64,000 nt of DNA from Escherichia coli (GCF_013122565.1 NZ_CP053258.1); one strand, 5' to 3'; positions 27,133-58,092 are shown, counted from the first letter of the stretch. Numbers and translations: made by a program. The notes: a model not told the origin generated them from the sequence alone.

Positions 27133-27159
27133 AAAAAATAAGCCCGTGTAAGGGAGATT
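27133..27159. other. Prophage attR core (P2 att core)
   Basis: AAAAAATAAGCCCGTGTAAGGGAGATT, the 27-nt P2 attP/attB core from memory; it coincides with the 3' end of cyaR and marks the prophage/host junction. Confidence 0.55.
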
Positions 27160-27219
27160 ACACAGGCTAAGGAGGTGGTTCCTGGTACAGCTAGCATTTT
27201 ATGGGTTATGTTTTTCAGC
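27133..27219 (-). ncRNA. cyaR: CyaR (RyeE) Hfq-dependent sRNA
   Basis: Minus-strand sequence GCUGAAAAACAUAACCCAUAAAAUGCUAGCUGUACCAGGAACCACCUCCUUAGCCUGUGUAAUCUCCCUUACACGGGCUUAUUUUUU (87 nt) matches CyaR from memory, including the terminator hairpin; position between yegQ and ogr as in K-12. Confidence 0.75.
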
Positions 27220-27253
27220 GAAACGGATGATAACCTTAATAAATGCAGCTGTA

Positions 27254-33620: not shown

Positions 33621-36600
33621 TTACTCGGTTACCGTTTGTTTAGGTTTACGCGAAAAACGCAGCCGCAGACGGTCGAAAAAGAGATACACCACCGGCGTGG
33701 TATACAGCGTCAGGAGCTGACTCATCACCAGACCGCCGACAATGGTGATCCCCAAGGGTTGGCGCAGCTCCGAGCCGTCACCGCCCGACAACACCAGCGG
33801 CAGCGCGCCAAACAGCGCCGCCAGGGTAGTCATCATAATCGGGCGAAAACGCAGCAGACAGGCCTGGAAAATAGCTTCCTGCGGCGTCAGGTTACCGTGC
33901 CGTTGGGCTTCAAGCGCAAAATCGACCATCATAATGGCGTTTTTCTTCACGATGCCGATTAATAGCATGATCCCTATCAGGGCGATTAGGCTGAACGGGG
34001 CATTGAACAGCTCCAGCGCCAGCAGCGCTCCAACGCCCGCCGAGGGCAGGGTGGAGAGAATCGTCAGCGGATGTACGTAACTCTCGTAAAGGATACCCAG
34101 CACGATATACACCGTGGCGATGGCGGCGATAATCAGGATCACCTGCGAGTTCATCGTCTCCTGGAACACCTGCGCCGTGCCGGCAAAACTGCCGCGCACC
34201 GTCGAAGGCACGCCAAGCTGGGTCATTGCGCGGTCGATCGCGGCACTGGCGTCCGAGAGCGATTTCCCGGTCGGCAGGTTGAACGAGATGGTCGAGGCCG
34301 CCGATAATCCCTGATGATTCACCGACAGCGGAGCATTCGCCGGTTGCCATTTAGCGAAATACGACAGCGGGATCGCTTTGCCTTCGTTATTGATAACGAA
34401 CATTTTTTCCAGCGCGCTGATGTCCTGGGTATAGCGCGGATCCACTTCCATCACCACTTTATACTGGTTCATCGGCTGGTAAATGGTCGAGATTTGCCGC
34501 TGACCGAAGGCGTTATTTAACAGGCTGTTGGCGGCCTGTACGTCGATTCCCAGCCGTGCCATGGTGTCGCGATCGTAAACCAGATTCATCTCCGCGCCGT
34601 TATCCTGCTGATCGGAGTTCACGTCCGCCAGTTCCGGCAATGTCGCCAGTTTTTTGCGGATTTTCGGCTCCCATTCGCGCAGTGCCGCCAGGTCGTCGGA
34701 TAACAACGTGTACTGGTAGCTGGCGTTCGACTGACGCCCACCAACGCGAATATCCTGTACCGCCATCAGGAACAGATTCGCCCCCGGTTCTTTCGCCAGT
34801 TTTACGCGCAGACGGTCGATAATTTGCTGCGCTGTTTCGCTGCGTTCGTCGCGTGGCTTGAGGGTGATAAACATCATGCCGCTGTTCACTCGCGAACCGC
34901 CGGTAAATCCGGTGACATTATCCACTGCCGGATCGTCACGGATAATTTTCATGAAATCCTGCAATTTGCCGCGCATTGCCTGAAACGAAATACTCTGATC
35001 CGCCTGTATCCCGCCCATCAGCACGCCGGTGTCTTGTTCCGGGAAGAAGGTCTTCGGGATCGAGATATAGAGCCAGATATTCAAAGCAATGGTGCCAAGC
35101 AGCACCACGCCCACCAGACGGGTATGATTGAGCACCCATTTCAGTGACTTACCATAGCCTTGTTGCAGGGCTACCAACATGCGACCAAAACCACGCAGTC
35201 GCTTTTGCTCGCGCGGCTTGCTGGCTTTCAGCATCCAGCCACACATCATTGGCGTTAATGTCAGAGAAACCAGCAACGAAATACCAATGGCGACAGAAAG
35301 CGTCACGGCAAACTCGCGTAACAGTCGGCCCGGCAATCCGCCCATCAACAGCAGCGGCAGGAACACCGCCACCAGTGACAGACTCATCGACAGCACCGTA
35401 AAGCCGACTTCGCGAGTACCTTGTAGCGCGGCCTGTAGTGGTTTCATCCCCGCTTCCAGATGACGGGCAATGTTTTCCAGCACCACGATGGCGTCATCCA
35501 CCACGAAACCAGTAGCGATGGTGAGCGCCATTAACGACAGGTTATTGAGACTGAATCCGCACAGGTACATCGCCGCAAACGTACCAATCAGCGAAACCGG
35601 CACCGCAACGGCGGGAATAATAGTGGCGCGACCCGAGCGCAGGAATAAAAAGACCACCAGAATCACCAGCGCCACCGAGATAATCAGCGTTTGCTCGACT
35701 TCTTCCAGCGAGGCGCGAATGGTGGGGGAGCGATCCTGAGCAATTTGCAGATCAATCGCCGCCGGAATGGTCTCCTGCAACTCCGGTAATTTTGCCCGGA
35801 TGCTGTCTACCGTCTGGATAATATTGGCTTCCGGCAGTTTGCGGATCATCAGCAAAATAGCCGGTTTGGCGTTGGTCATCCCGGCGTTGCGCACATCCTG
35901 CACTGAGTCGGTTACCGTTGCCACATCGCCCAGACGAACCGCACCACCATTGTTGTAGTGAATAATCAGCGGCTGATATTCAGCGGCGGTTTTCAGTTCA
36001 TCGTTGGTCTGGATCTGCCAGCGGTGAATGCCATCTTCCAGCGCCCCCTGTGGTTTACGTACGTTGGCATTGCTGATGGCAGTGCGTACGTCGTCCAGCG
36101 ACACGCCCTGATTAAACAGTGCTTGCGGGTTCAGCCCGACGCGCACCGCAGGCAGCGAGCTGCCGCCGACATCGACATCACCGACGCCGTCGATTTGAGA
36201 AATCGTCGGAGCCAGCTGCGTCGAGGCAAAATCGTACAGTTCACCTTGCGAATAAGTATCGGACGTCAGCGTGAGGATCATAATTGGCGCATCCGACGGG
36301 TTCGCTTTGCGATAGGTCGGACGGCTGGGCATCCCGCTGGGCAGCAAACTTTGTGCAGCGTTGATCGCCGCCTGCACATCGCGCGCTGCGCCGTTGATAT
36401 CGCGGTCAAAATCAAACTGCAAAATAATGCGCGTGCTGCCGAGCGAACTGCTGGAGGTCATTTCACTGACCCCGGCAATGCGCCCAAGTGATCGCTCCAG
36501 CGGCGTGGCAACGGAAGACGCCATTGTTTCTGGTGACGCACCGGGCAGCGAGGCGCTGACCATAATCACTGGAAAATCGACCTGCGGCAGCGGGGCGACC

Positions 36601-36698
36601 GGCAGCATACGGAAACCCAGTATGCCGCACAGGGTAATGGCGACCGACAGTAAAATCGTTGCCACCGGGCGGTAAATGAAGAGGGCAAAAAACTTCAC
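33621..36698 (-). CDS. mdtC: RND multidrug efflux pump subunit MdtC
   Basis: 1025 aa RND transporter; same length as K-12 MdtC. Confidence 0.95.
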
Positions 36699-39600
36699 TT
36701 ACGCCTCCTCTTCATGACGGGCAAAGCGACTTTTGGTCCACAATGCCAGGCGGTCGAACAGCAGATAAATCACCGGCGTGGTGAACAGCGTCAGCACCTG
36801 GCTGACAATCAGACCGCCGACCATGCCGATACCTAACGGACGACGCAGTTCCGCGCCGACCCCGGTACTCAACATCAGCGGCAGCGCGCCAAGCAGAGCC
36901 GCCAGGGTGGTCATCAGGATCGGACGAAAACGCAACAGACAAGCCTGGTAGATTGCATCGCGCGGCGACATGCCTTGCTCGCGCTCAGCAGCCAGCGCGA
37001 AGTCGATCATCATGATGGCGTTCTTCTTCACGATACCGATCAGCAAAATAATGCCGATAATCGCAATCACATCCAGTTCGCTACCGGCAATCATTAACGC
37101 CAGCAGTGCGCCAACACCTGCCGTGGGTAGCGTCGAGAGAATGGTGATCGGGTGAATAAAGCTCTCGTACAGAATGCCGAGCACGATATACATCGCCACC
37201 ACCGCCGCGACAATCAGCCAGACGGTGCTGCCCAGCGCCGACTGGAAGGCGAGGGTGCTGCCCTGGAACTGCGTGGTGATATCCACCGGCAGATTCAGAG
37301 TCTTTTCGGTGTCCATAATCGCCTGCACCGCATCGCCCAGCGAATAGTTATCCGGCACGTTAAAGGAGATGGTCGTTACCGGGAACTGATCCAGATGGTT
37401 GATGGAAAGCGGCGCAAAACGCTGCTCAATTTTGGCAATTGAGCTTAACGGCACCACGCCACCGTCGCTGCTGGTCAGGCGAATGGTATCCAGCGCCGCG
37501 AGGCCTGGGGTATTTTCGGTGTTGTGCTCCAGCACCACGCGATACTGGTTAGCCTGAGTATAAATAGTGGAAATCAGCCGCTGACCAAACGCGTTGTACA
37601 GGGCGTTATCGACGTCCGCCATGCTGATCCCCAGACGGCTGGCGCTGTCGCGATCAACATTGACATACGCCACCAGCCCTTTGTCCTGCCAGTCGCTGGA
37701 GACATCAGATAGCTGTGGCAGCTGCTGGAGTTTTTCCATCAACTGTGGCACCCAGGTACTGAGCGCATCCAGTGACGTGGCCTGCAAGGTAAACTGGTAC
37801 TGGGTGCGGCTGACCTGAGTATCGATGGTCAGGTCCTGCGTTGGTTGCAGGAAGAGATCGACGCCCGGCACTTTATCCACCGCCGTTTGCAGACGGGCGA
37901 TGACTTTTTGCACCCGATCATCACGTTCATCCAGCGGTTTGAGGTTGATCTGCAAACGCGCACTGTTCAGCGACGGGTTAGTGCCATCAACGCCAACAAA
38001 TGAGGTCAGACTTTGCACTGCCGGATCCTGCAAAATCACGTCCGCGACCTGGCGTTGCCGCTGGGCCATATTGGCAAAGGAGCTGGATTGCGGTGCCTGC
38101 AAAGTGCCCTGAATAATGCCGTTATCCTGTACCGGGAAGAAACCTTTCGGAATGAACACCCACAATAGAACGCTAAGCAGCAGCGTGCTGAGCGCCACGC
38201 TTAAGGTCAGCCACGGATGATTCAGCACTTTCGCAAGTCCCTGACCATAGGCGGCGATTATCCTGTCGAACATTTTTTCCGAGGCACGGGAGAAGCGGTT
38301 CTGTTTACGCAGTGACTCCTGGCTGAGCATCCGCGCGCACATCATCGGTGTCAGGGTCAGCGACACCACGGCTGAGATCAAAATCGCTACCGCCAGGGTA
38401 ATAGCAAATTCGCGGAACAGTCGCCCGACGATATCGCCCATAAACAGCAGTGGGATCAACACCGCAATCAGCGAGAAGGTCAGCGAGATAATGGTAAAGC
38501 CGATTTCACCCGCGCCTTTGAGCGCCGCCGCCAACGGTTTTTCGCCTTTTTCGATATAGCGGGAAATGTTTTCGATCACCACGATGGCGTCATCGACCAC
38601 AAATCCGGTGGCGATAGTTAACGCCATCAGCGTCAGGTTATTGATTGAAAAATCGAGAAACACCATGACCGCGAAGGTGCCGATTAACGACAGCGGCACT
38701 GCGACGCCGGGAATGATGGTCGCCGGAATATTGCGCAAAAACAGGTAGATAATCATGACTACCAGCGCGATAGCCATCATCAATTCAAACTGAGTATCAT
38801 CGACGGATGCGCGGATATTGGTGGTACGGTCAGAAAGTACCGTCACCTTCACCGATTTCGGCAGACTCTCGGTGAGCTGTGGCAGCATCTGCCGGATGCT
38901 GTCGGCGGTGGAGATAATGTTAGCACCGGGCTGGCGCTGAACATTCATCACAATGGCCTGTTCTTTGTTCGCCCATGCGCCGAGCCAGCTGTTTTCTGCA
39001 CCTTGCTCTACGGTTGCGACATCGCCCAGACGAATCGGCGCGCCGTTCTGGTAGGCGATGATTAGCTGGCGATACTCTTCGGCGGATTGCATCTGGTCGT
39101 TAGCGGAAAGCGTAACCGCACGGGAAGGGCCGTCAAGGCTACCTTTAGCCGAGTTAACGTTAGCGCCGGTAATGGCGGTGCGCACGGTTTCGCTGGTCAG
39201 GCCGAGGGCGGCAATCGCCTGAGCGTTAAGTTTGACGCGAACAGCCGGACGCTGGCCGCCGGAAAGCGTCACCAGACCGACGCCGGAAATCTGCGAGATT
39301 TTCTGCGCGACGCGGGTTTCCACCATATCTTCCACTTGCGTCATCGGCATGGCTGTTGAGGTGACGGCGAGCGTCATGATCGGCGGATCTGCCGGGTTCA
39401 CTTTGCTGTAAACCGGCGGGTTAGGCAGATCGCTCGGCAACAAGTTGGTCGCAGCGTTAATCGCGGCCTGTACTTCCTGCTCGGCGACATCCAGCGGTAA
39501 TGTTAGCTGGAACTGCAAAGTGATAACTGACGCACCGCCGGAACTTTGCGACGACATCTGTTTCAGACCAGACATCTGCCCGAACTGGCGTTCGAGCGGC

Positions 39601-39821
39601 GCGGTAACGGCAGAGGTCATGACATCCGGGCTCGCACCTGGGTAGAGCGTGACCACCTGAATGGTCGGATAGTCCACTTCCGGCAGCGCCGAAACGGGCA
39701 GGGCGCGATAACCGATAATCCCGGCGAGTAAGATCGCCACCATCAGCAGCGTGGTGGCCACAGGACGCATAATAAACAGGCGCGACGGGCCGCCTGTGCT
39801 GCTCGGGGGTAACACCTGCAT
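36699..39821 (-). CDS. mdtB: RND multidrug efflux pump subunit MdtB
   Basis: 1040 aa RND transporter; same length as K-12 MdtB. Confidence 0.95.
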
Positions 39822-41068
39822 CAGGAGCGTGCTCCTTTTTTCGCGTATTCGCGGCTGGTGGCTTTCTCTTCCGAAGTGGTGGCGCTCTGGGCTTCCACCA
39901 CTTCCACTTTCGCCCCTTCGGTCAGGCGATCAATGCCGTCTGTCACCACGCGATCGCCCGCAGAAATACCTGCGCGGATCACCACTTTCTGACTGTCCTG
40001 AATGCCCGGCGTCACCAGATGTTTGCTGACCTTGTTTTCGCTATTCAGCACCCAGACAAAATGGCCTTCATTGCCCATTTGCAGGGCGGCTGTTGGGATC
40101 ACCACGGCGTTTTGTTCGGTGTCGACTAACATACGCGCGTTAACAAACTGATTGGGAAACAGCGCATCATCCTGATTATTAAAGCGTGCTTTCACTTTAA
40201 TCGTACCGGTAGTGGCATCGATTTGGTTATCGAGACTTAACAGCGTGCCTTCACTTAATTTCTTCGAGTTGGTGCGATCCCAGGCTTCTACCACCAGCGG
40301 TTTTCCGGTTTTTTGCGCCTGCACAACGGTAGCGATATCGCTTTCCGGCAGGGTAAAGACTAAATCGATAGGATGCGTCTGGGTGATCACCACAATCCCG
40401 GAGGTATCACCACTGGAGATTTGGTTACCAACATCAACCTGCTTGAGACCAACGCGACCATCGACTGGTGCGGTGATGCGGCTCCAGTCGAGTTGCAGCT
40501 GTGCGCTGGCGACGCTTGCTTCATCAGCCTTAATGGTGCCTTCGGTTTCACTGACCAGCGCCTGTTGGGCATCCAGTTCCTGACGAGATACGAGATTGGT
40601 TTTTGCCAGTTGTTGATAACGCGCCAGGTCACGGCGGGCGTTGGCGAGCGTGGCTTTATCTTTTGCCAGTTGGCCCTGGGCTTGTGCTAATGCAACTTTG
40701 AACTGGCTTGGGTCAATTTCTGCCAGTAAATCGCCTGCTTTGACCTGCTGGCCTTCCTGGAAATGTAACGCCATCAGTTGACCGTCCACGCGGCTGCGCA
40801 CCGTAACAGTATTAGCGGCGGTAATGGTGCCAAGCCCGGTGAGGTAACGCGGAACAGCCTGTTCTACTGCGGTCGCCGCCTGAACCGGAGCTAATGGGCC
40901 GGCACGCATACCACGGCGACCACCCGCTGGCGATTGCTGCGCTTGTTTCGTCGCCCCAGGGGCTGCACTCTGGGAGTCATTGCGGCCTTGCCAGAACCAG
41001 AATGCGGCGATGGCGGCGATAACCACCACGATTACGATTACCCAACGGGATTTATAACTGCCTTTCAT
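39821..41068 (-). CDS. mdtA: Membrane fusion (periplasmic adaptor) protein MdtA
   Basis: Start [16 protein letters not shown] gives 415 aa as in K-12; the longer track ORF (to 41215) is an upstream extension. Confidence 0.9.
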
Positions 41069-41121
41069 CGTTAAGAGTTTCTCTTCCTGAAACGTTTCGC
41101 GGAATGATACTAGTGTAGCCA

Positions 41122-41139
41122 GCCAATAAGGGAGAAAAA
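41122..41139 (-). promoter_or_regulatory. Candidate BaeR box in the mdtA promoter
   Basis: Minus-strand TTTTTCTCCCTTATTGGC, about 55-70 bp upstream of the mdtA start; matches the BaeR consensus TTTTTCTCCATDATTGGC from memory. Confidence 0.5.
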
Positions 41140-41284
41140 TGGAGGAATTATGAAACACTATCGGGAATCGTCTGAATGGCGGGCACATTTGCGAGCACGC
41201 ATCCAGTAATAACACAGGAAACTATTTTATCTACGCGTTAGCGATAGACTGCTTGCATGGCGAAAGGAGGTAAGCCGACGATTT

Positions 41285-41425
41285 CAGCGGGACGCTGAAA
41301 CGGGAAAGCCCCTATAAGGAAAGGGTCATGATGAAGTGGATCATCATCGTGGTGCTCTTAGTCATAAGCTTCCCGGCTTACTAAGACTACCAGGGCGGGG
41401 GAAACCCCGCTCTACCCTCACTCCT
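41285..41425 (-). ncRNA. Sib antisense RNA (antitoxin) opposite ibs copy 1; ends approximate
   Basis: In K-12 each ibs ORF lies wholly inside a ~140-nt antisense Sib RNA (established knowledge); the extent here is estimated and no promoter or terminator was mapped. Confidence 0.3.
41328..41384 (+). CDS. Ibs-family type I toxin peptide (MMKWIIIVVLLVISFPAY)
   Basis: 18-codon hydrophobic ORF with GGAAAGGG RBS-like sequence upstream; Ibs family signature MMK...ILV...ISFPAY. Confidence 0.75.
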   Translation: MMKWIIIVVLLVISFPAY

Positions 41426-41611
41426 GAAATTATGCCTTCACGATAAGATTGTCAATCCGCAGGCTTTGTAGTCTGCGATCCTGCCAGCAAATATTCTTTG
41501 CGAGTCGTTACGCAATAATCACACTGGAAACTATTTTATCCGCAAGTCAGCGATAGACTGCATACAGGGCGAAAGGAGGTAAGCCGACGATTTCAGCGGG
41601 ACGCTGAAACG

Positions 41612-41752
41612 GGAAAGCCCCTCCCGAGGAAGGGGCCTTAAATAAGGAAAGGGTCATGATGAAGATACTCATCATCGTGGTGCTCTTAGTGATTAGCTAC
41701 CCAGCATACTAAGACTACCAGGGCGGGGGAAACCCCGCTCTACCCTCACTCC
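41612..41752 (-). ncRNA. Sib antisense RNA opposite ibs copy 2; ends approximate
   Basis: As for copy 1. Confidence 0.3.
41656..41712 (+). CDS. Ibs-family type I toxin peptide (MMKILIIVVLLVISYPAY)
   Basis: Second repeat copy, same frame and context as the first. Confidence 0.75.
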   Translation: MMKILIIVVLLVISYPAY

Positions 41753-41941
41753 TGAAATTATGCCTTCACGATAAGATTGTCAATCCGCAGGCTTTGTAGT
41801 CTGCGATCCTGCCAGCAAATATTCTTTGCGAGTCGTTACGCAATAATCACAGAGGAAACTATTTTGTTCACGCGTTAGCGATAGACTGCATTCAGGGCGA
41901 AAGGAGGTAAGCCGACGATTTCAGCGGGATGCTGAAACGGG

Positions 41942-42085
41942 AAACCCTCTCCCGGAGAAGAGGGCTTTTAATAAGGAAAGGGTTATGATGAAGCACGTCA
42001 TCATACTGGTGATACTCTTAGTGATTAGCTTCCAGGCTTACTAAGAACACCAGGGGGAGGGGGAAACCTCTCCCTAACCCTCACT
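41942..42085 (-). ncRNA. Sib antisense RNA opposite ibs copy 3; ends approximate
   Basis: As for copy 1. Confidence 0.3.
41985..42044 (+). CDS. Ibs-family type I toxin peptide (MMKHVIILVILLVISFQAY)
   Basis: Third repeat copy; 19 codons; closest of the three to K-12 IbsA from memory. Confidence 0.75.
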   Translation: MMKHVIILVILLVISFQAY

Positions 42086-42264
42086 CCTGAAATTATGTCA
42101 CTCCGCCCTTAGTGTCAATCGACGGCTCTCCGTTCTTGCGAGGCGAATAGCAAAATTTTCTGCGCCGCCGGGCCTAATTCTGAAAGTTTCTTCGTTTGCT
42201 CTTATTTCATTATTGCAATCGGTATGATACCGGACCTCGATAATTCTCTAAGAAAGGATTTCTT

Positions 42265-42924
42265 ATGAGCGAACAAATCACGTTTGCCACCAGCGATTTT
42301 GCCAGTAACCCGGAACCACGTTGCCCCTGCATTTTGCTGCTGGATGTTTCTGGTTCGATGAACGGTAGACCCATTAATGAACTTAACGCCGGATTGGTTA
42401 CCTTTCGCGATGAGCTGCTTGCCGATTCGCTGGCCTTAAAAAGAGTGGAACTCGGTATTGTGACGTTCGGCCCGGTGCATGTGGAACAACCATTTACCAG
42501 CGCCGCTAATTTTTTCCCGCCCATCCTGTTTGCCCAGGGCGATACACCAATGGGGGCCGCCATTACCAAAGTCCTGGATATGGTTGAGGAGCGCAAACGT
42601 GAGTATCGTGCAAATGGTATTTCGTATTATCGCCCGTGGATTTTCCTGATCACCGATGGCGCTCCAACCGATGAGTGGCAGGCTGCCGCCAACAAAGTGT
42701 TTCAGGGGGAAGAAGATAAGAAGTTTGCCTTCTTTACCATCGGTGTGCAGGGGGCGGATATGAAGACGCTGGCACAAATCAGCGTTCGTCAGCCTTTGCC
42801 ACTGCAGGGATTACAATTCCGTGAACTGTTTAGCTGGTTATCCAGTTCACTGCGTTCGGTTTCCCGCTCCACGCCGGGAACGGAAGTTGTGCTGGAAGCA
42901 CCAAAAGGCTGGACGTCAGTGTGA
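42265..42924 (+). CDS. yegL: von Willebrand factor A domain protein YegL
   Basis: 219 aa; MIDAS-like DxSxS motif (LLLDVSGSM); same length as K-12 YegL. Confidence 0.9.
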
Positions 42925-43682
42925 GCTGGCGTCTGGTCTATGCATCAACCGTTGGAACGTCGCACATCAGCGCGGACTTGCCTTGCCAGGATGCCTGCCA
43001 GATGCAGGTTGCCTGGTTAAATGACCAGCAGCCATTATTGTCGGTATTTGTCGCTGATGGCGCAGGCAGTGTCTCGCAGGGTGGCGAAGGCGCGATGCTT
43101 GCCATCAATGAAGCGATGGCTTATGTGTCGCAAAAAGTGCAGCACGGTGAATTTGGACTCAATGATATCCTCGCCACGGATATTGTGCTGACCGTTCGTC
43201 AGCGACTTTTTGCCGAGGCGGAAGCCAAAGAATTAGCAGTTCGCGATTTTGCCTGCACGTTTCTGGGATTGATTTCATCGGCTAACGGCACCTTGATTAT
43301 GCAGATTGGCGATGGCGGCGTGGTGGTGGATTTTGGTCACGGTCTGCAATTACCGCTTACGCCGATGGTGGGTGAATATGCCAATATGACGCATTTCATT
43401 ACCGATGAAGATGCCGTTTCCAGACTGGAAACTTTCACCATCACTGAGCGTGTGCATAAAGTTGCAGCATTTACGGACGGTATCCAGCGACTGGCGTTAA
43501 ATATGTTGGATAATTCTCCGCATGTGCCTTTCTTTACCCCGTTTTTCAATGGACTGGCGTCAGCAACGCAGGAACAACTCGATTTATTACCTGAATTGTT
43601 AAAGCAGTTTTTGTCCAGCCCGGCGGTAAACGAGCGTACGGATGATGATAAAACGTTGGCACTGGCGCTGTGGGCAGAGTGA
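42921..43682 (+). CDS. pphC: PP2C-family Ser/Thr protein phosphatase PphC (YegK)
   Basis: 253 aa, start overlaps the yegL stop; matches K-12 PphC length and position. Confidence 0.85.
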
Positions 43683-43746
43683 GTTTCTCATGGCGGTTGA
43701 AGACAACAATTCAACCGCCAGTTTAAGCAATCAATATAACGGCTGA

Positions 43747-44208
43747 TTAGCGAACTAATTTTGCTCTTAGCTCGTCGGCTTCTTCTTTTGGATAGGTGAC
43801 CAATAAAGGATCAATGGTATAACCGCCGTAAATTTTATCCCCGCGCGTATACATCCAGTCTGAAATATCTTCTTTCTTGATTTTCCACTCCTGGCCATAT
43901 TCTACGTTTGTAACAATACCAGGGTCATTGCTGATTACGCCAATAAACATGCCGTTAGAATAAGTGACATCCGTAAGCCAGAAATGCTCGGTTCTTCCGT
44001 GATCGGTTATCGGGGCTTTGACTGCGAAAGTATCGGCATCTTTTTTATTCATAACCTCGATGAATTTATCGGTTTCTTTCCGCGCATGTTTAATCGCGTC
44101 AGACATCGCTTGTTTATCATAACCTCCTGTCACTAACGTATCCGAAACTTCACAATAGCCTGCGGTAGTAAAACATAGCAGGCTCAACATGAGTAATATC
44201 TTTTTCAT
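43747..44208 (-). CDS. yegJ: Secreted DUF2314-type protein YegJ
   Basis: 153 aa with N-terminal signal peptide (MKKILLMLSLLCFTTAGYC); same length as K-12 YegJ. Confidence 0.85.
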   Translation of the reverse strand: MKKILLMLSLLCFTTAGYCEVSDTLVTGGYDKQAMSDAIKHARKETDKFIEVMNKKDADTFAVKAPITDHGRTEHFWLTDVTYSNGMFIGVISNDPGIVTNVEYGQEWKIKKEDISDWMYTRGDKIYGGYTIDPLLVTYPKEEADELRAKLVR

Positions 44209-44405
44209 TTTTTCTCCAGAATCTCTGTGTAGTAAAAGTTAGCAAAACCTGTGGAAGTTAATCATTATCAGGTTGGAATTGAATTGTATCCTGATGAAAT
44301 TACATTATCATTTTTATTCTTGAGTGGGCTCTTCCCATATAGAAATAATTATAATGGGCAGTGTTATTATTCATTGAAATATAATATTACTGCCCTTGAA
44401 ACATT

Positions 44406-46352
44406 ATGAAGACAAATATAAAAGTATTTACATCAACAGGTGAAATGACCACTCTCGGTCTTGAACTGGGCAAAGGTGGCGAAGGTGCGGTTTATGATAT
44501 CGAGGAGTTTGTCGATAGCGTCGCTAAGATTTATCACACGCCGCCACCCGCCTTAAAACAGGACAAACTTGCCTTTATGGCTGCGACAGCTGACGCGCAG
44601 TTGTTGAATTATGTCGCCTGGCCGCAGGCAACGCTTCACGGTGGACGAGGCGGAAAAGTTATCGGTTTTATGATGCCAAAAGTTTCTGGTAAAGAACCGA
44701 TTCATATGATCTATAGCCCGGCACATCGTCGCCAGAGTTACCCTCATTGTGCGTGGGATTTTCTACTCTATGTTGCGCGCAATATTGCTTCATCTTTTGC
44801 TACGATTCACGAGCACGGGCACGTCGTGGGTGACGTAAACCAGAACAGCTTTATGGTAGGTCGCGACAGCAAAGTGGTGTTGATTGATAGCGACTCCTTT
44901 CAGATTAATGCCAATGGCACGCTGCATTTATGCGAAGTCGGCGTGTCGCATTTTACGCCGCCAGAGCTACAAACCTTGCCATCATTTGTCGGCTTTGAAC
45001 GCACCGCGAATCACGATAATTTTGGCCTTGCGTTGCTGATTTTTCACGTCTTGTTTGGTGGGCGGCATCCTTATTCTGGTGTGCCGCTTATCTCTGATGC
45101 GGGGAATGCGCTGGAGACGGATATTGCCCATTTCCGTTATGCCTACGCGTCAGATAATCAGCGACGTGGTTTAAAACCGCCGCCACGATCGATTCCGCTG
45201 TCGATGTTACCGGGCGATGTTGAAGCCATGTTTCAGCAGGCATTCACGGAAAGTGGCGTGGCAACCGCGCGTCCGACGGCAAAAGCGTGGGTAGCGGCAC
45301 TTGATTTACTACGCCAACAGTTAAAGAAATGTACCGTTTCGGCAATGCATGTTTACCCCGGTCATTTGACTGACTGCCCGTGGTGTGCGCTGGATAATCA
45401 AGGCGTTATCTATTTTATTGATCTCGGCGAAGAGGTCATTACCACCAGTGGTGATTTTGTGCTGGCGAAAGTCTGGGCGATGGTGATGGCGTCAGTAGCA
45501 CCGCCAGCATTGCAATTGCCATTACCCGATCATTTCCAACCGACTGGCCGGCCGCTTCCTTTAGGCCTGTTACGGCGCGAATACATCATTCTGATTGAGA
45601 TCGCACTGTCAGTGTTATCGCTGTTGCTTTGCGGCCTTCAGGCAGAACCGCGTTATATTATTTTGGTTCCTGTGCTGGCGGCTATCTGGATTATTGGCAG
45701 CCTGACAAGCAAAGCGTACAAAGCAGAAGTCCAGCGACGAAGAGAGGCTTTTAATCGCGCGAAAATGGACTATGATCATTTAGTCAGCCAGATCCAACAA
45801 TTGGGCGGGCTGGAAGGTTTTATCGCCAAACGGGCGATGCTCGAAAAAATGAAGGACGAAATTCTCGGGTTACCGGAAGAAGAGAAACGCGCTCTGGCAG
45901 CACTTCATGACACTGCAAGGGAACGGCAGAAGCAGAAGTTTCTGGAGGGATTTTTTATTGATGTTGCCTCTATTCCCGGCGTTGGCCCTGCGCGTAAAGC
46001 GGCGTTACGGTCCTTTGGTATTGAAACAGCAGCGGATGTTACCCGTCGTGTCGTTAAGCAAGTGAAAGGGTTTGGTGATCATCTGACCCAGGCAGTTATC
46101 GACTGGAAAGCAAGTTGCGAACGCCGTTTTGTGTTCAGGCCGAATGAAGTGGTAACGCCAGCAGACAGACAAGCGGTAATGGCGAAAATGACCGCCAAAC
46201 GACATCGGCTGGAATCGGCGTTGACTGTCGGCGCGACAGAGTTGCAGCGATTCCGCCTTCATGCTCCAGCACGGACCATGCCGTTGATGGAACCTTTACG
46301 TCAGGCGGCAGAAAAACTGGCTCAGGCGCAGGCAGATTTAAGCCGCTGCTGA
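44406..46352 (+). CDS. yegI: Atypical Ser/Thr protein kinase YegI with C-terminal membrane and coiled-coil region
   Basis: 648 aa; kinase-like fold features (HGHVVGDVNQNSFMV; DSDSF); same length as K-12 YegI. Confidence 0.9.
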   Translation: MKTNIKVFTSTGEMTTLGLELGKGGEGAVYDIEEFVDSVAKIYHTPPPALKQDKLAFMAATADAQLLNYVAWPQATLHGGRGGKVIGFMMPKVSGKEPIHMIYSPAHRRQSYPHCAWDFLLYVARNIASSFATIHEHGHVVGDVNQNSFMVGRDSKVVLIDSDSFQINANGTLHLCEVGVSHFTPPELQTLPSFVGFERTANHDNFGLALLIFHVLFGGRHPYSGVPLISDAGNALETDIAHFRYAYASDNQRRGLKPPPRSIPLSMLPGDVEAMFQQAFTESGVATARPTAKAWVAALDLLRQQLKKCTVSAMHVYPGHLTDCPWCALDNQGVIYFIDLGEEVITTSGDFVLAKVWAMVMASVAPPALQLPLPDHFQPTGRPLPLGLLRREYIILIEIALSVLSLLLCGLQAEPRYIILVPVLAAIWIIGSLTSKAYKAEVQRRREAFNRAKMDYDHLVSQIQQLGGLEGFIAKRAMLEKMKDEILGLPEEEKRALAALHDTARERQKQKFLEGFFIDVASIPGVGPARKAALRSFGIETAADVTRRVVKQVKGFGDHLTQAVIDWKASCERRFVFRPNEVVTPADRQAVMAKMTAKRHRLESALTVGATELQRFRLHAPARTMPLMEPLRQAAEKLAQAQADLSRC

Positions 46353-46364
46353 GCCATTTTTCAA

Positions 46365-47717
46365 TTAACGAAACACCACTTCCGCCCAGCGTGCCAGCCC
46401 GGCGGTGACGGAGCCAAAGTCATCGCCGCCTGCAATCGGAATGCCCGGCAACTGTTCTGCCAGCGCTTTTTTAATCAGCGGAGAACGGGCGCTACCGCCG
46501 GTCAGGTATATAACGTCCGGTTTTTCCTGGGCGTTATCCAGGGCCAGTTGCACCTGTTCCAGAATCCGCGCCAGTGGCTGGCTGAGGGCGCTTTCCAGCC
46601 CTTGCTGGCTAATCAGCGTAGCCAGTTCATCGCTAATAAACGGCAGTGAGGCGCGGGTTTCCGCAGTGCTGGAAAGAGCAATTTTGCTCTCTTCTGCGCT
46701 ACGCACCAGGCGATAGCTTAAACGCTGACGCCAGACTTTCTGTAGCAGGGCCACTTTTTCCGGTTCGCGGGCATCGCGTACCAGATCGTTAAGCAGACGA
46801 CCGTTGGCACTACTGTAGAAATCACTCTGCGCAGGAACGTCGTTGATGGCAACCGCATTCCACCACGGCAGAATCGGCAGGGCGATGCCTTTTTCGGTTT
46901 CGCCACCCATGCCCAGTAACGGCATCAGGTTTTTAAACGCCAGCGCGATATCCAGATCGTTACCGCCAATACGGCAACCACTGTGACCGAGCAGGCTGGC
47001 TTCACGATCGAGACGCGAACGCCACTGCGGCCCCATCAGCAGCAATGAACAGTCAGTCGTACCACCGCCGATATCCACCACCAGCACCCGTTTTTCTTCC
47101 TGCAAGGTGGCCTCGTAATCCAGCCCAGCTGCTACCGGCTCGTACTGGAATACCACATCCTTAAACCCGGCACGCTTTGCCGCGCGTTCCAGAATTCCTT
47201 GCGCCTGAGCGTTTGCTTCATCACCCCCCAGCCCCTGGAAGTTGATCGGGCGACCAATCACCGCCTGAGTAATCGCTTCTGGCAGCTGCGCCTGCGCCTG
47301 CTGGCGAATGTGCAACATCATTGCGCAGACCAGATCCTCAAACAGCGCTACCTGCTGCGGTTTTAAGCCGCTGGCACCGAGGAACGATTTTGGTGATTTC
47401 ACAAACCACACTTCTTCTGGATCATCAATGTACTGTGCCAGTGAGGAAAGACCGAACTGCACGCTTTTCGCCGTAACATCGATATCTTCTTCGCGGTTAT
47501 AACGAATCGCCCGACGTAACAGCGCCTGCGTTTCATCGTCGTCTGCCGGAACATCATGATGGCGGTACAGCCATTCGCTTACCGCTTCACGCGTTGGCGC
47601 GCAAAGCATTGAAGGCAGCAGCGTGCTGTCGTTTTCCATTTTTAGCAAGTGCGGTTTACCGTCACGCATGACCGCCACTGAACAGTTTGCTGTACCGTAA
47701 TCAAAACCAATAAACAC
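46365..47717 (-). CDS. yegD: Hsp70/actin-fold ATPase YegD
   Basis: DnaK-like motifs (IGFDYGTANCSVAV; VVDIGGGTTDCSLL); GTG start giving 450 aa as annotated in K-12; the ATG-initiated track ORF extends to 47780 (471 aa). Confidence 0.85.
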   Translation of the reverse strand: MFIGFDYGTANCSVAVMRDGKPHLLKMENDSTLLPSMLCAPTREAVSEWLYRHHDVPADDDETQALLRRAIRYNREEDIDVTAKSVQFGLSSLAQYIDDPEEVWFVKSPKSFLGASGLKPQQVALFEDLVCAMMLHIRQQAQAQLPEAITQAVIGRPINFQGLGGDEANAQAQGILERAAKRAGFKDVVFQYEPVAAGLDYEATLQEEKRVLVVDIGGGTTDCSLLLMGPQWRSRLDREASLLGHSGCRIGGNDLDIALAFKNLMPLLGMGGETEKGIALPILPWWNAVAINDVPAQSDFYSSANGRLLNDLVRDAREPEKVALLQKVWRQRLSYRLVRSAEESKIALSSTAETRASLPFISDELATLISQQGLESALSQPLARILEQVQLALDNAQEKPDVIYLTGGSARSPLIKKALAEQLPGIPIAGGDDFGSVTAGLARWAEVVFR

Positions 47718-57613: not shown

Positions 57614-58080
57614 AGTAAGTACAAAACCTATTCGTTGTATGACAAATGTCACAATTCGATCATGGATAAATCGGGGCAAAAATGCAATGTTGCAGCACTA
57701 TTTATCTCATATTATTTGAGGGTAATAACCTCACATTATCCCTGAATTAAAAGTGGTAATAATAAACATTATTTAAGAAATATCGCATGTGGAGACGCAA
57801 TATTAAATATTGTCAACCTAAAGAAACTCCTAAAAACCATATTGAATGACACTTAATATAATTCTTAAAAATAGCCAATTGCCGAATTGTTACCTTGCCT
57901 GCTATTCCGTTAGCTGTAACACTTCCTCCTGCATTATTGGAGAGCCAATATTCAATTACCATAATGTCACCTTATATTCGGAAGTTAATTTCCGCAATAA
58001 CCCTTTCTCATCAACGATTGTATGCAGAGAGGGTTTGAAAAATTAAGCTAAATCAGTGTATTGGTAGCTAAAAAGCCAGG

Positions 58081-58092
58081 GGCGGTAGCGTG
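58081..58092 (+). promoter_or_regulatory. ops / JUMPstart element upstream of the colanic acid (wza) operon
   Basis: GGCGGTAGCGTG, the ops consensus, about 180 bp upstream of the wza start in the untranslated leader. Confidence 0.6.

Follow-up and report, generated by a model that had tools for sequence, protein, structure and literature searches.

The window analyzed here, a 64,000-nucleotide stretch of Escherichia coli DNA (GCF_013122565.1, NZ_CP053258.1), carries three head-to-tail repeats at approximately 41188-42130, in the interval between mdtA and yegL (Table 1). The repeats were delineated by a direct-repeat search, TRF and direct reading of positions 40800-42600. TRF assigned the array a period of 328 nt and 2.4 copies with 89% matches; the ibs start codons are spaced 328 and 329 nt apart, and start-to-start distances between repeats come to 309, 328 and 332 nt, depending on the register. 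On the minus strand, the Rfam model SIB_RNA (RF00113) matched three times over its full length (model positions 1-147), at 41313-41455, 41641-41783 and 41970-42118. The match scores of 140.9, 142.2 and 149.5 bits, set against a gathering score of 56, are therefore far above chance. Three tandem ibs/sib units had been postulated in the original prediction, and both the repeat structure and the Rfam matches bear this out; the three Ibs-type ORFs listed in Table 1 also read exactly as they had been transcribed there.

The flanking genes are colinear with the yegL-mdtA SIB locus of K-12, in which sibA/ibsA and sibB/ibsB are annotated between yegL and mdtA, and the original prediction was right in giving K-12 two copies. 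The K-12 pairs resemble the array in the window in locus, orientation, promoters, terminator design and overall unit sequence. The window differs in having one more IbsB-type unit and in the cassette types of its IbsB-type units, as described below. Taken together with the comparisons that follow, the region is very probably the common three-unit version of the chromosomal ibs/sib type I toxin-antitoxin array found between mdtA and yegL, made up of shuffled old cassettes.

Table 1. Features of the mdtA-yegL interval, in coordinates of the window.
Feature	Position	Strand	Basis and remarks
mdtA	39821..41068	-	ORF list and annotation of matching genomes; ATG at 41068-41066; 5' flank of the array
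Repeat unit 1	41188..41496		IbsB-type, W head, FPA tail; 309 nt
Sib-1 RNA	41303..41419	-	5' end (41419) from K-12 sibB; 41303 is only the homologue of the normal 3' end
ibs-1 ORF MMKWIIIVVLLVISFPAY	41328-41384	+	Identical to peptide WP_012767741.1 of other genomes
Sib-1 promoter	41427..41455	-	TTGACA at 41455-41450, 17 nt, TAATTT at 41432-41427
Repeat unit 2	41497..41824		IbsB-type, I head, YPA tail; 328 nt
Sib-2 RNA	41612..41747	-	136 nt, by homology to K-12 sibB
Sib-2 terminator hairpin	41617-41637	-	Followed by UUUCCCGUUU; -17.3 kcal/mol (folding)
ibs-2 ORF MMKILIIVVLLVISYPAY	41656-41712	+	Identical to WP_012767742.1
Sib-2 promoter	41755..41783	-	TTGACA-N17-TAATTT
Repeat unit 3	41825..42130		ibsA/sibA unit; adjoins yegL
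SibA RNA	41939..42082	-	144 nt, by homology to K-12 sibA
SibA terminator hairpin	41945-41964	-	-16.0 kcal/mol (folding)
ibsA ORF MMKHVIILVILLVISFQAY	41985-42044	+	Identical to K-12 IbsA, WP_010723109.1
SibA promoter	42090..42118	-	TTGACA-N17-TAATTT
yegL	42265..42924	+	vWA-domain protein; 3' flank of the array; ORF list and annotation of matching genomes

All three Ibs peptides, which are hydrophobic and 18-19 codons long, already exist as RefSeq proteins. Those of units 1 and 2 correspond to "Ibs family toxin" entries and differ from K-12 IbsB at 2-3 residues. The toxicity of the K-12 Ibs peptides and the mechanism of their repression by Sib were reportedly established by Fozo in 2008. By analogy, each unit of the window would encode a hydrophobic Ibs toxin of 18-19 amino acids on its plus strand and, on its minus strand, a constitutive Sib antisense RNA of approximately 136-144 nt that would overlap the whole ibs ORF. 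Sequence identity with K-12 suggests that each Sib would pair with ibs mRNA and thereby block toxin synthesis, and it is from the K-12 homologues that we infer toxicity and Sib repression for the W and I cassettes. Pairing of Sib with ibs and repression by the cognate Sib have been described for K-12 (Han et al., 2010; PMC2943612).

The ends of the Sib RNAs were assigned by transferring to the window the offsets of the annotated K-12 sibA (144 nt) and sibB (136 nt). A scan for consensus promoters and terminators found none of the three Sib promoters, whose TAATTT element scores 3 of 6, and missed the Sib terminators, which have a short U tract; its sole terminator-like match was the SibA hairpin read on the plus strand. 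The scan was thus uninformative, and the annotated K-12 ends were used for this reason. In all three units the Sib 5' end falls 7 nt downstream of TTGACA-N17-TAATTT on the minus strand, and the Sib-1 and Sib-2 promoters are identical, with no differences between them. The normal Sib 3' end comes after an 11-bp GC-rich hairpin and UUUCCCGUUU. This is the upstream hairpin noted in the original prediction; read on the minus strand, it is the Sib terminator.

To compare units, we parsed 31 of them from 15 loci into cassettes. IbsB-type units are distinguished by a head at codons 4-5, which reads TGGATC (W-I), ATACTC (I-L) or CTACTC (L-L), and by a tail at codons 12-17, which is of the FPA, YPA, WPA or LPA type. 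The heads found in the window are W-I and I-L, whereas that of K-12 is L-L. Apart from the 19-nt deletion described below, units 1 and 2 differ from each other in three blocks. Within the ORF there are four substitutions at nt 10-13 and five at nt 36-51, two segments in which both units also depart from K-12 ibsB, with no difference in the remaining approximately 140 nt, which comprise the rest of the ORF, the 3' region, the Sib promoter and the spacer. The third and most divergent block is the 70 nt upstream of ibs, presumed to be the ibs promoter region, with 17 substitutions between units 1 and 2 (41188-41257 vs. 41497-41566) and nine between units 2 and 3. The original prediction had placed the differences mainly in the peptide codons and a hairpin; both are seen, but the upstream block had been missed. 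Divergence of this block could mean that each toxin gene is regulated separately. For comparison, Han et al. placed the ibs promoter and transcription start for ibsC and ibsD only (PMC2943612).

Which of these differences might matter for target choice was judged by mapping the target recognition elements of Han et al. onto the window through the K-12 sibC/ibsC coordinates (PMC2943612). In SibC and SibD, TRD1 and the P6 loop have been implicated in target recognition and discrimination; the P6 loop is an auxiliary requirement for TRD2, TRD1 is sufficient for repression by SibC, and the terminator stem is P7, located directly after TRD2 (Han et al., 2010; PMC2943612). On the window, TRD1 (SibC +46-68, the P5 loop) maps to the last approximately eight codons and thus to the cassette tail, the P6 loop maps to codons 4-5, the cassette head, and TRD2 (SibC +99-115) maps to positions -16 to +1 of ibs. 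As in SibC, TRD2 is directly followed by the terminator stem in units 2 and 3, and the variable positions fall on TRD1 and the P6 loop. Nine of the 10 common polymorphic columns lie in TRD1 (five) or the P6 loop (four), an enrichment with a Fisher p of 2.6e-6 among 16 E. coli IbsB-type units that are not independent samples. Of the five TRD1 sites, four are synonymous, a pattern that suggests that selection acts on the RNA and not on the peptide.

Pairing between a Sib and the other unit's target is correspondingly uneven. Non-cognate TRD1 duplexes in the window have three to five mismatches in 23 nt, with a longest contiguous run of 7-15 nt, and the P6 loop has four mismatches. By contrast with SibC and SibD, which differ in TRD1 and TRD2, the IbsB-type cassettes of the window differ in TRD1 and the P6 loop only; the TRD2 core (-16 to +1) does not vary between the W, I and L cassettes. 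The translation-initiation region of ibs-1 thus offers Sib-2 an uninterrupted 23-nt match. Since the differences lie in elements implicated in target recognition, the two units are probably at least partly orthogonal, although the shared TRD2 core and the 23-nt Sib-2/ibs-1 pairing mean that orthogonality may be incomplete. The proposal that substitutions in the toxin ORF and its antisense may keep each Sib specific for its own ibs fits both the experiments of Han et al. and the distribution of the polymorphism, the substitutions within the overlap falling only on the P6 loop and TRD1; the idea is already in the literature. Since most tail changes are synonymous, a more speculative reading is that head and tail cassettes may be kept across Escherichia species by diversifying selection on the RNA-RNA recognition loops. 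If so, the array would be a natural library of orthogonal antisense pairs. The identity of units 1 and 2 in the rest of the Sib-overlapping part most likely reflects gene conversion together with purifying selection.

Unit 1 is only 309 nt long because of a 19-nt deletion. Where other units read GCCCCT-CCCGAGGAAGGGGCCTTAA-ATAAGG, unit 1 has the junction GCCCCT/ATAAGG at 41313/41314. The deleted stretch comprises the Sib-1 terminator stem-loop plus the final 2 nt of the segment equivalent to TRD2, so that unit 1, compared with K-12 sibB, is without the Sib terminator hairpin. This hairpin is intact in all 23 other IbsB-type units of a 24-unit alignment. Three hairpin variants had been reported in the original prediction with their letters correct, but the first, GCCCCTATAAGG, is the leftover of the hairpin deletion rather than a variant hairpin. 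In folding predictions the Sib-1 remnant retains a 4-bp stem of -5.7 kcal/mol, well short of the stabilities of the hairpins in units 2 and 3 (Table 1).

Unit 1 nevertheless gives a full-length RF00113 match, because the model leaves out the terminator. The model is displaced relative to the annotated genes in K-12 as well: its matches at the K-12 locus (976-1124 and 1311-1453 of the fetched locus) begin 36 nt upstream of annotated sibA and sibB, with the -35 hexamer at model position 1, and end 29-31 nt before their 3' ends. The model thus takes in the Sib promoter, and a full-length RF00113 match is no guarantee of an intact sRNA gene.

Sib-1 retains its promoter, TRD1, P1 and 15 of the 17 TRD2 positions. 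It is therefore probably still produced and can probably still pair through TRD1. Without its terminator, its real 3' end probably lies further toward mdtA; the RNA is predicted to terminate poorly and to extend toward the mdtA promoter. The possibility raised earlier that one copy lacks a transcribed Sib finds a mixed answer here, in that all three Sib promoters are intact and the Sib-1 terminator is lost. mdtA shares its strand with the Sib RNAs: beyond Sib-1, in the direction of its transcription, come the ibs-1 upstream region and then, approximately 230 nt on, the mdtA start.

The deletion could instead have arisen as an error of assembly or sequencing, the true genome having three canonical units, and we consider this somewhat unlikely. 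The deletion exactly matches an 11-bp GC-rich stem-loop inside a tandem repeat, the kind of site at which polymerases and assemblers fail, and its junction occurs in no other sequence searched: it was absent from 5,426 E. coli genomes, in which every top match splits in two at the junction, and from GTDB species representatives and JGI metagenomes. However, excision of hairpins by replication slippage is also a frequent genuine mutation, the deletion has clean edges with flawless sequence to either side, and what is left of unit 1 matches known alleles exactly.

If the deletion is real, transcription from the Sib-1 promoter might run on past the promoter of ibs-1 and through the regulatory region of mdtA into mdtABCD-baeSR. 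We regard this read-through as an unlikely outcome. Were it to occur, mdtABCD-baeSR, an operon for multidrug efflux and the envelope-stress response, would have its basal expression coupled to an antitoxin promoter, and ibs-1 would be damped by transcriptional interference. It is also unlikely that unit 1 is a decaying, non-functional ibs/sib pair, with terminator loss as the first step of pseudogenization and cross-protection against Ibs-1 by Sib-2 allowing the loss to be tolerated. In favor of decay, an sRNA is normally destabilized when its terminator is lost, Sib-2 matches the TRD2 target of ibs-1 over 23 nt without a break, and arrays do lose units, as one-copy and IS-disrupted examples attest. 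Against decay, the ibs-1 ORF is intact together with its Shine-Dalgarno sequence and upstream region, as is the Sib-1 promoter, and all of these match alleles of other strains exactly; the deletion also leaves untouched TRD1, which in SibC is sufficient for repression (PMC2943612). A Sib-1 RNA that lacks its terminator would in any case be a natural mutant for asking what the terminator adds to antitoxin function.

To survey the number of units, the locus was compared by megablast with 5,426 complete E. coli genomes, and matches were sampled at even steps down the ranking to give 59 informative rows. The sample contained 24 three-copy loci (~41%), 25 two-copy loci (~42%), seven four-copy loci (~12%), one one-copy locus and two loci interrupted by insertion sequences. 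In this sample, the three-copy class means ibsA plus two Ibs genes, and classes were verified on fetched loci; rows H49-H52, three-copy at first look, proved to be four-copy arrays once their loci had been fetched. Colinearity with the two-copy K-12 locus (at least 80% coverage in one place) was seen in 2,310 of 5,419 complete E. coli genomes, so that approximately 43% have two or fewer units and approximately 57% have more units or an interrupted array. Three or four units were present in ~53% of the sample, and ~55% of complete genomes carry more units than K-12; since RefSeq is biased toward clinical and laboratory lineages, these percentages describe the database and not nature.

An array of three units is therefore not an expansion peculiar to this strain, as had been proposed: at least three copies are the majority state among complete E. 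coli genomes. Set against the alternative named in the original prediction, that K-12 and most strains have three copies here, K-12 has two and most strains have at least three. The two-unit array of K-12 is not the baseline but one of several common states. "Two copies" itself covers two architectures, L-A in K-12 and W-L in B2: the B2-type strains Nissle 1917 (W-L), APEC O1 and JJ1886 have two units and no ibsA listed here. The junction at 41497-41580 was tried as a marker of arrays with at least three copies and dropped, as B2-type two-copy arrays (APEC O1, Nissle) share this junction type. Copy number is known to vary among strains, O157:H7 Sakai having seven ibs genes and K-12 five (Fozo et al., 2010; PMC2887945), and the ibsB-mdtA intergenic region has already served as a marker informative of the host (PMC11267920). 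Family, mechanism, tandem organization and variation in copy number are already published, and the exact peptides found here are routinely annotated. In two genomes, insertion sequences (IS4 and IS150) lie directly after the first ibs/sib unit, in FUJ80154 (from 1516 of the fetched locus onward) and E1 (from 1549 onward), and the array is therefore also a target of, or a tolerated site for, IS insertion.

Cassette order varies as well as number. Across the 15 parsed loci, ibsA is the yegL-proximal unit wherever it is present, and it is absent in Nissle 1917. The orders observed were W-I-A (the window and SM107), I-W-A (O157), I-W-L-A, L-W-I-A, L-A (K-12), W-L (Nissle) and A alone. Heads and tails are themselves recombined: the W head occurs with FPA, YPA and WPA tails, and the L head with FPA, YPA, WPA and LPA tails. 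The same repertoire of cassettes and peptides is found in three- and four-unit arrays annotated by PGAP (SM107, O157:H7 F8092B, NDM_11.16372 and SW070912). SM107 shares the W-I-A order of the window, but its W cassette carries a YPA tail, whereas that of unit 1 carries an FPA tail and the private 19-nt deletion. Exchange also crosses cassette classes. In the ibsA unit of O157:H7 F8092B (approximately 1205-1254 of the fetched locus), an IbsB-type hairpin, GCCCCTCCCGAGGAAGGGGCC, stands in place of the ibsA-type hairpin and the Shine-Dalgarno region is altered (AAGAAAAGGG); such a chimeric unit indicates gene conversion between the classes.

The shuffled unit order and the head-tail chimeras are direct evidence of unequal exchange and gene conversion between units, and such unequal recombination changes array size (one to four units) and cassette order from strain to strain. 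The suggestion of unequal crossing-over is in this respect supported, but, judged from the sequences compared, unit exchange is a species-wide process and not an event in this strain. The cassettes are older than the arrays that they compose. Outgroup loci have one or two units, with a W head in E. whittamii, an I head in Escherichia sp. MOD1-EC7003, an L head in E. albertii, and L and I heads in Escherichia sp. E1V33. The presence of W, I and L heads in other Escherichia species implies that the cassette types predate the diversification of E. coli. Outside the hotspots, approximately 1% of positions differ between units of species whose flanking DNA diverges by approximately 7%. As read from their cassettes, the larger arrays are assemblies of old alleles, and units 1 and 2 are distinct cassette types rather than recent duplicates.

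That the third unit instead arose by a recent, strain-specific duplication, through unequal crossing-over of a K-12-like pair followed by fast divergence of the toxin ORF, is highly improbable. In its favor, K-12 does have two units, and the ~140 nt covering the 3' region, Sib promoter and spacer match completely (100%) between units 1 and 2, as would be expected of a recent event. Such identical flanks are, however, better explained by gene conversion. The W-I-A array is present in SM107 and others, ~55% of complete genomes, O157:H7 and O26 among them, carry at least three copies, distant strains have W and I ORFs of the same nucleotide sequence, and the W, I and L heads are found as lone units in other Escherichia species. 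The shuffling of cassettes and the mostly synonymous polymorphism of TRD1 and the P6 loop form a natural data set for studying orthogonality among antisense pairs.

Citrobacter werkmanii carries one IbsA-like unit, MMKHVIILVIFLVISFAAY, whose hairpin is of the IbsB type (220-365 of the fetched locus). Its genomic context is a different one: neither mdtA nor yegL is close by, and a JUMPstart element lies 11 kb away. An ibsA-type ORF therefore exists outside Escherichia. In the ldr/rdl (LDR) systems, the antisense RNA covers the 5' part of the mRNA, whereas Sib spans the whole ORF, and the toxin family, that of the 35-aa Ldr, is unrelated. Like ibs/sib, ldr/rdl is a set of chromosomal type I tandem repeats in one intergenic region whose copy number depends on the strain (PMC2887945).

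At the flanks of the locus, identity is 97-99% to E. coli strains but 92-95% to E. albertii, E. whittamii and other Escherichia species; a non-coli Escherichia origin, considered because of the low best identity over 12 kb given below, was rejected on these grounds. Across the locus itself the best identity to a complete genome is 97.3%. Over positions 35000-47000, which include mdtABC, yegL, pphC and yegI, the best identity among 5,426 complete E. coli genomes is 97.1%, and none reaches 99%. Either the strain belongs to a lineage without a close relative among complete genomes, or the region is a recombinant import. Elsewhere in the window, a CyaR/RyeE sRNA match was found at 27136-27221 on the minus strand (100.7 bits), at a distance from mdtA roughly as expected from K-12 synteny. 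A JUMPstart element at 58054-58092 on the plus strand (57.3 bits) presumably lies upstream of the colanic-acid (wza) cluster, as judged from the K-12 map.
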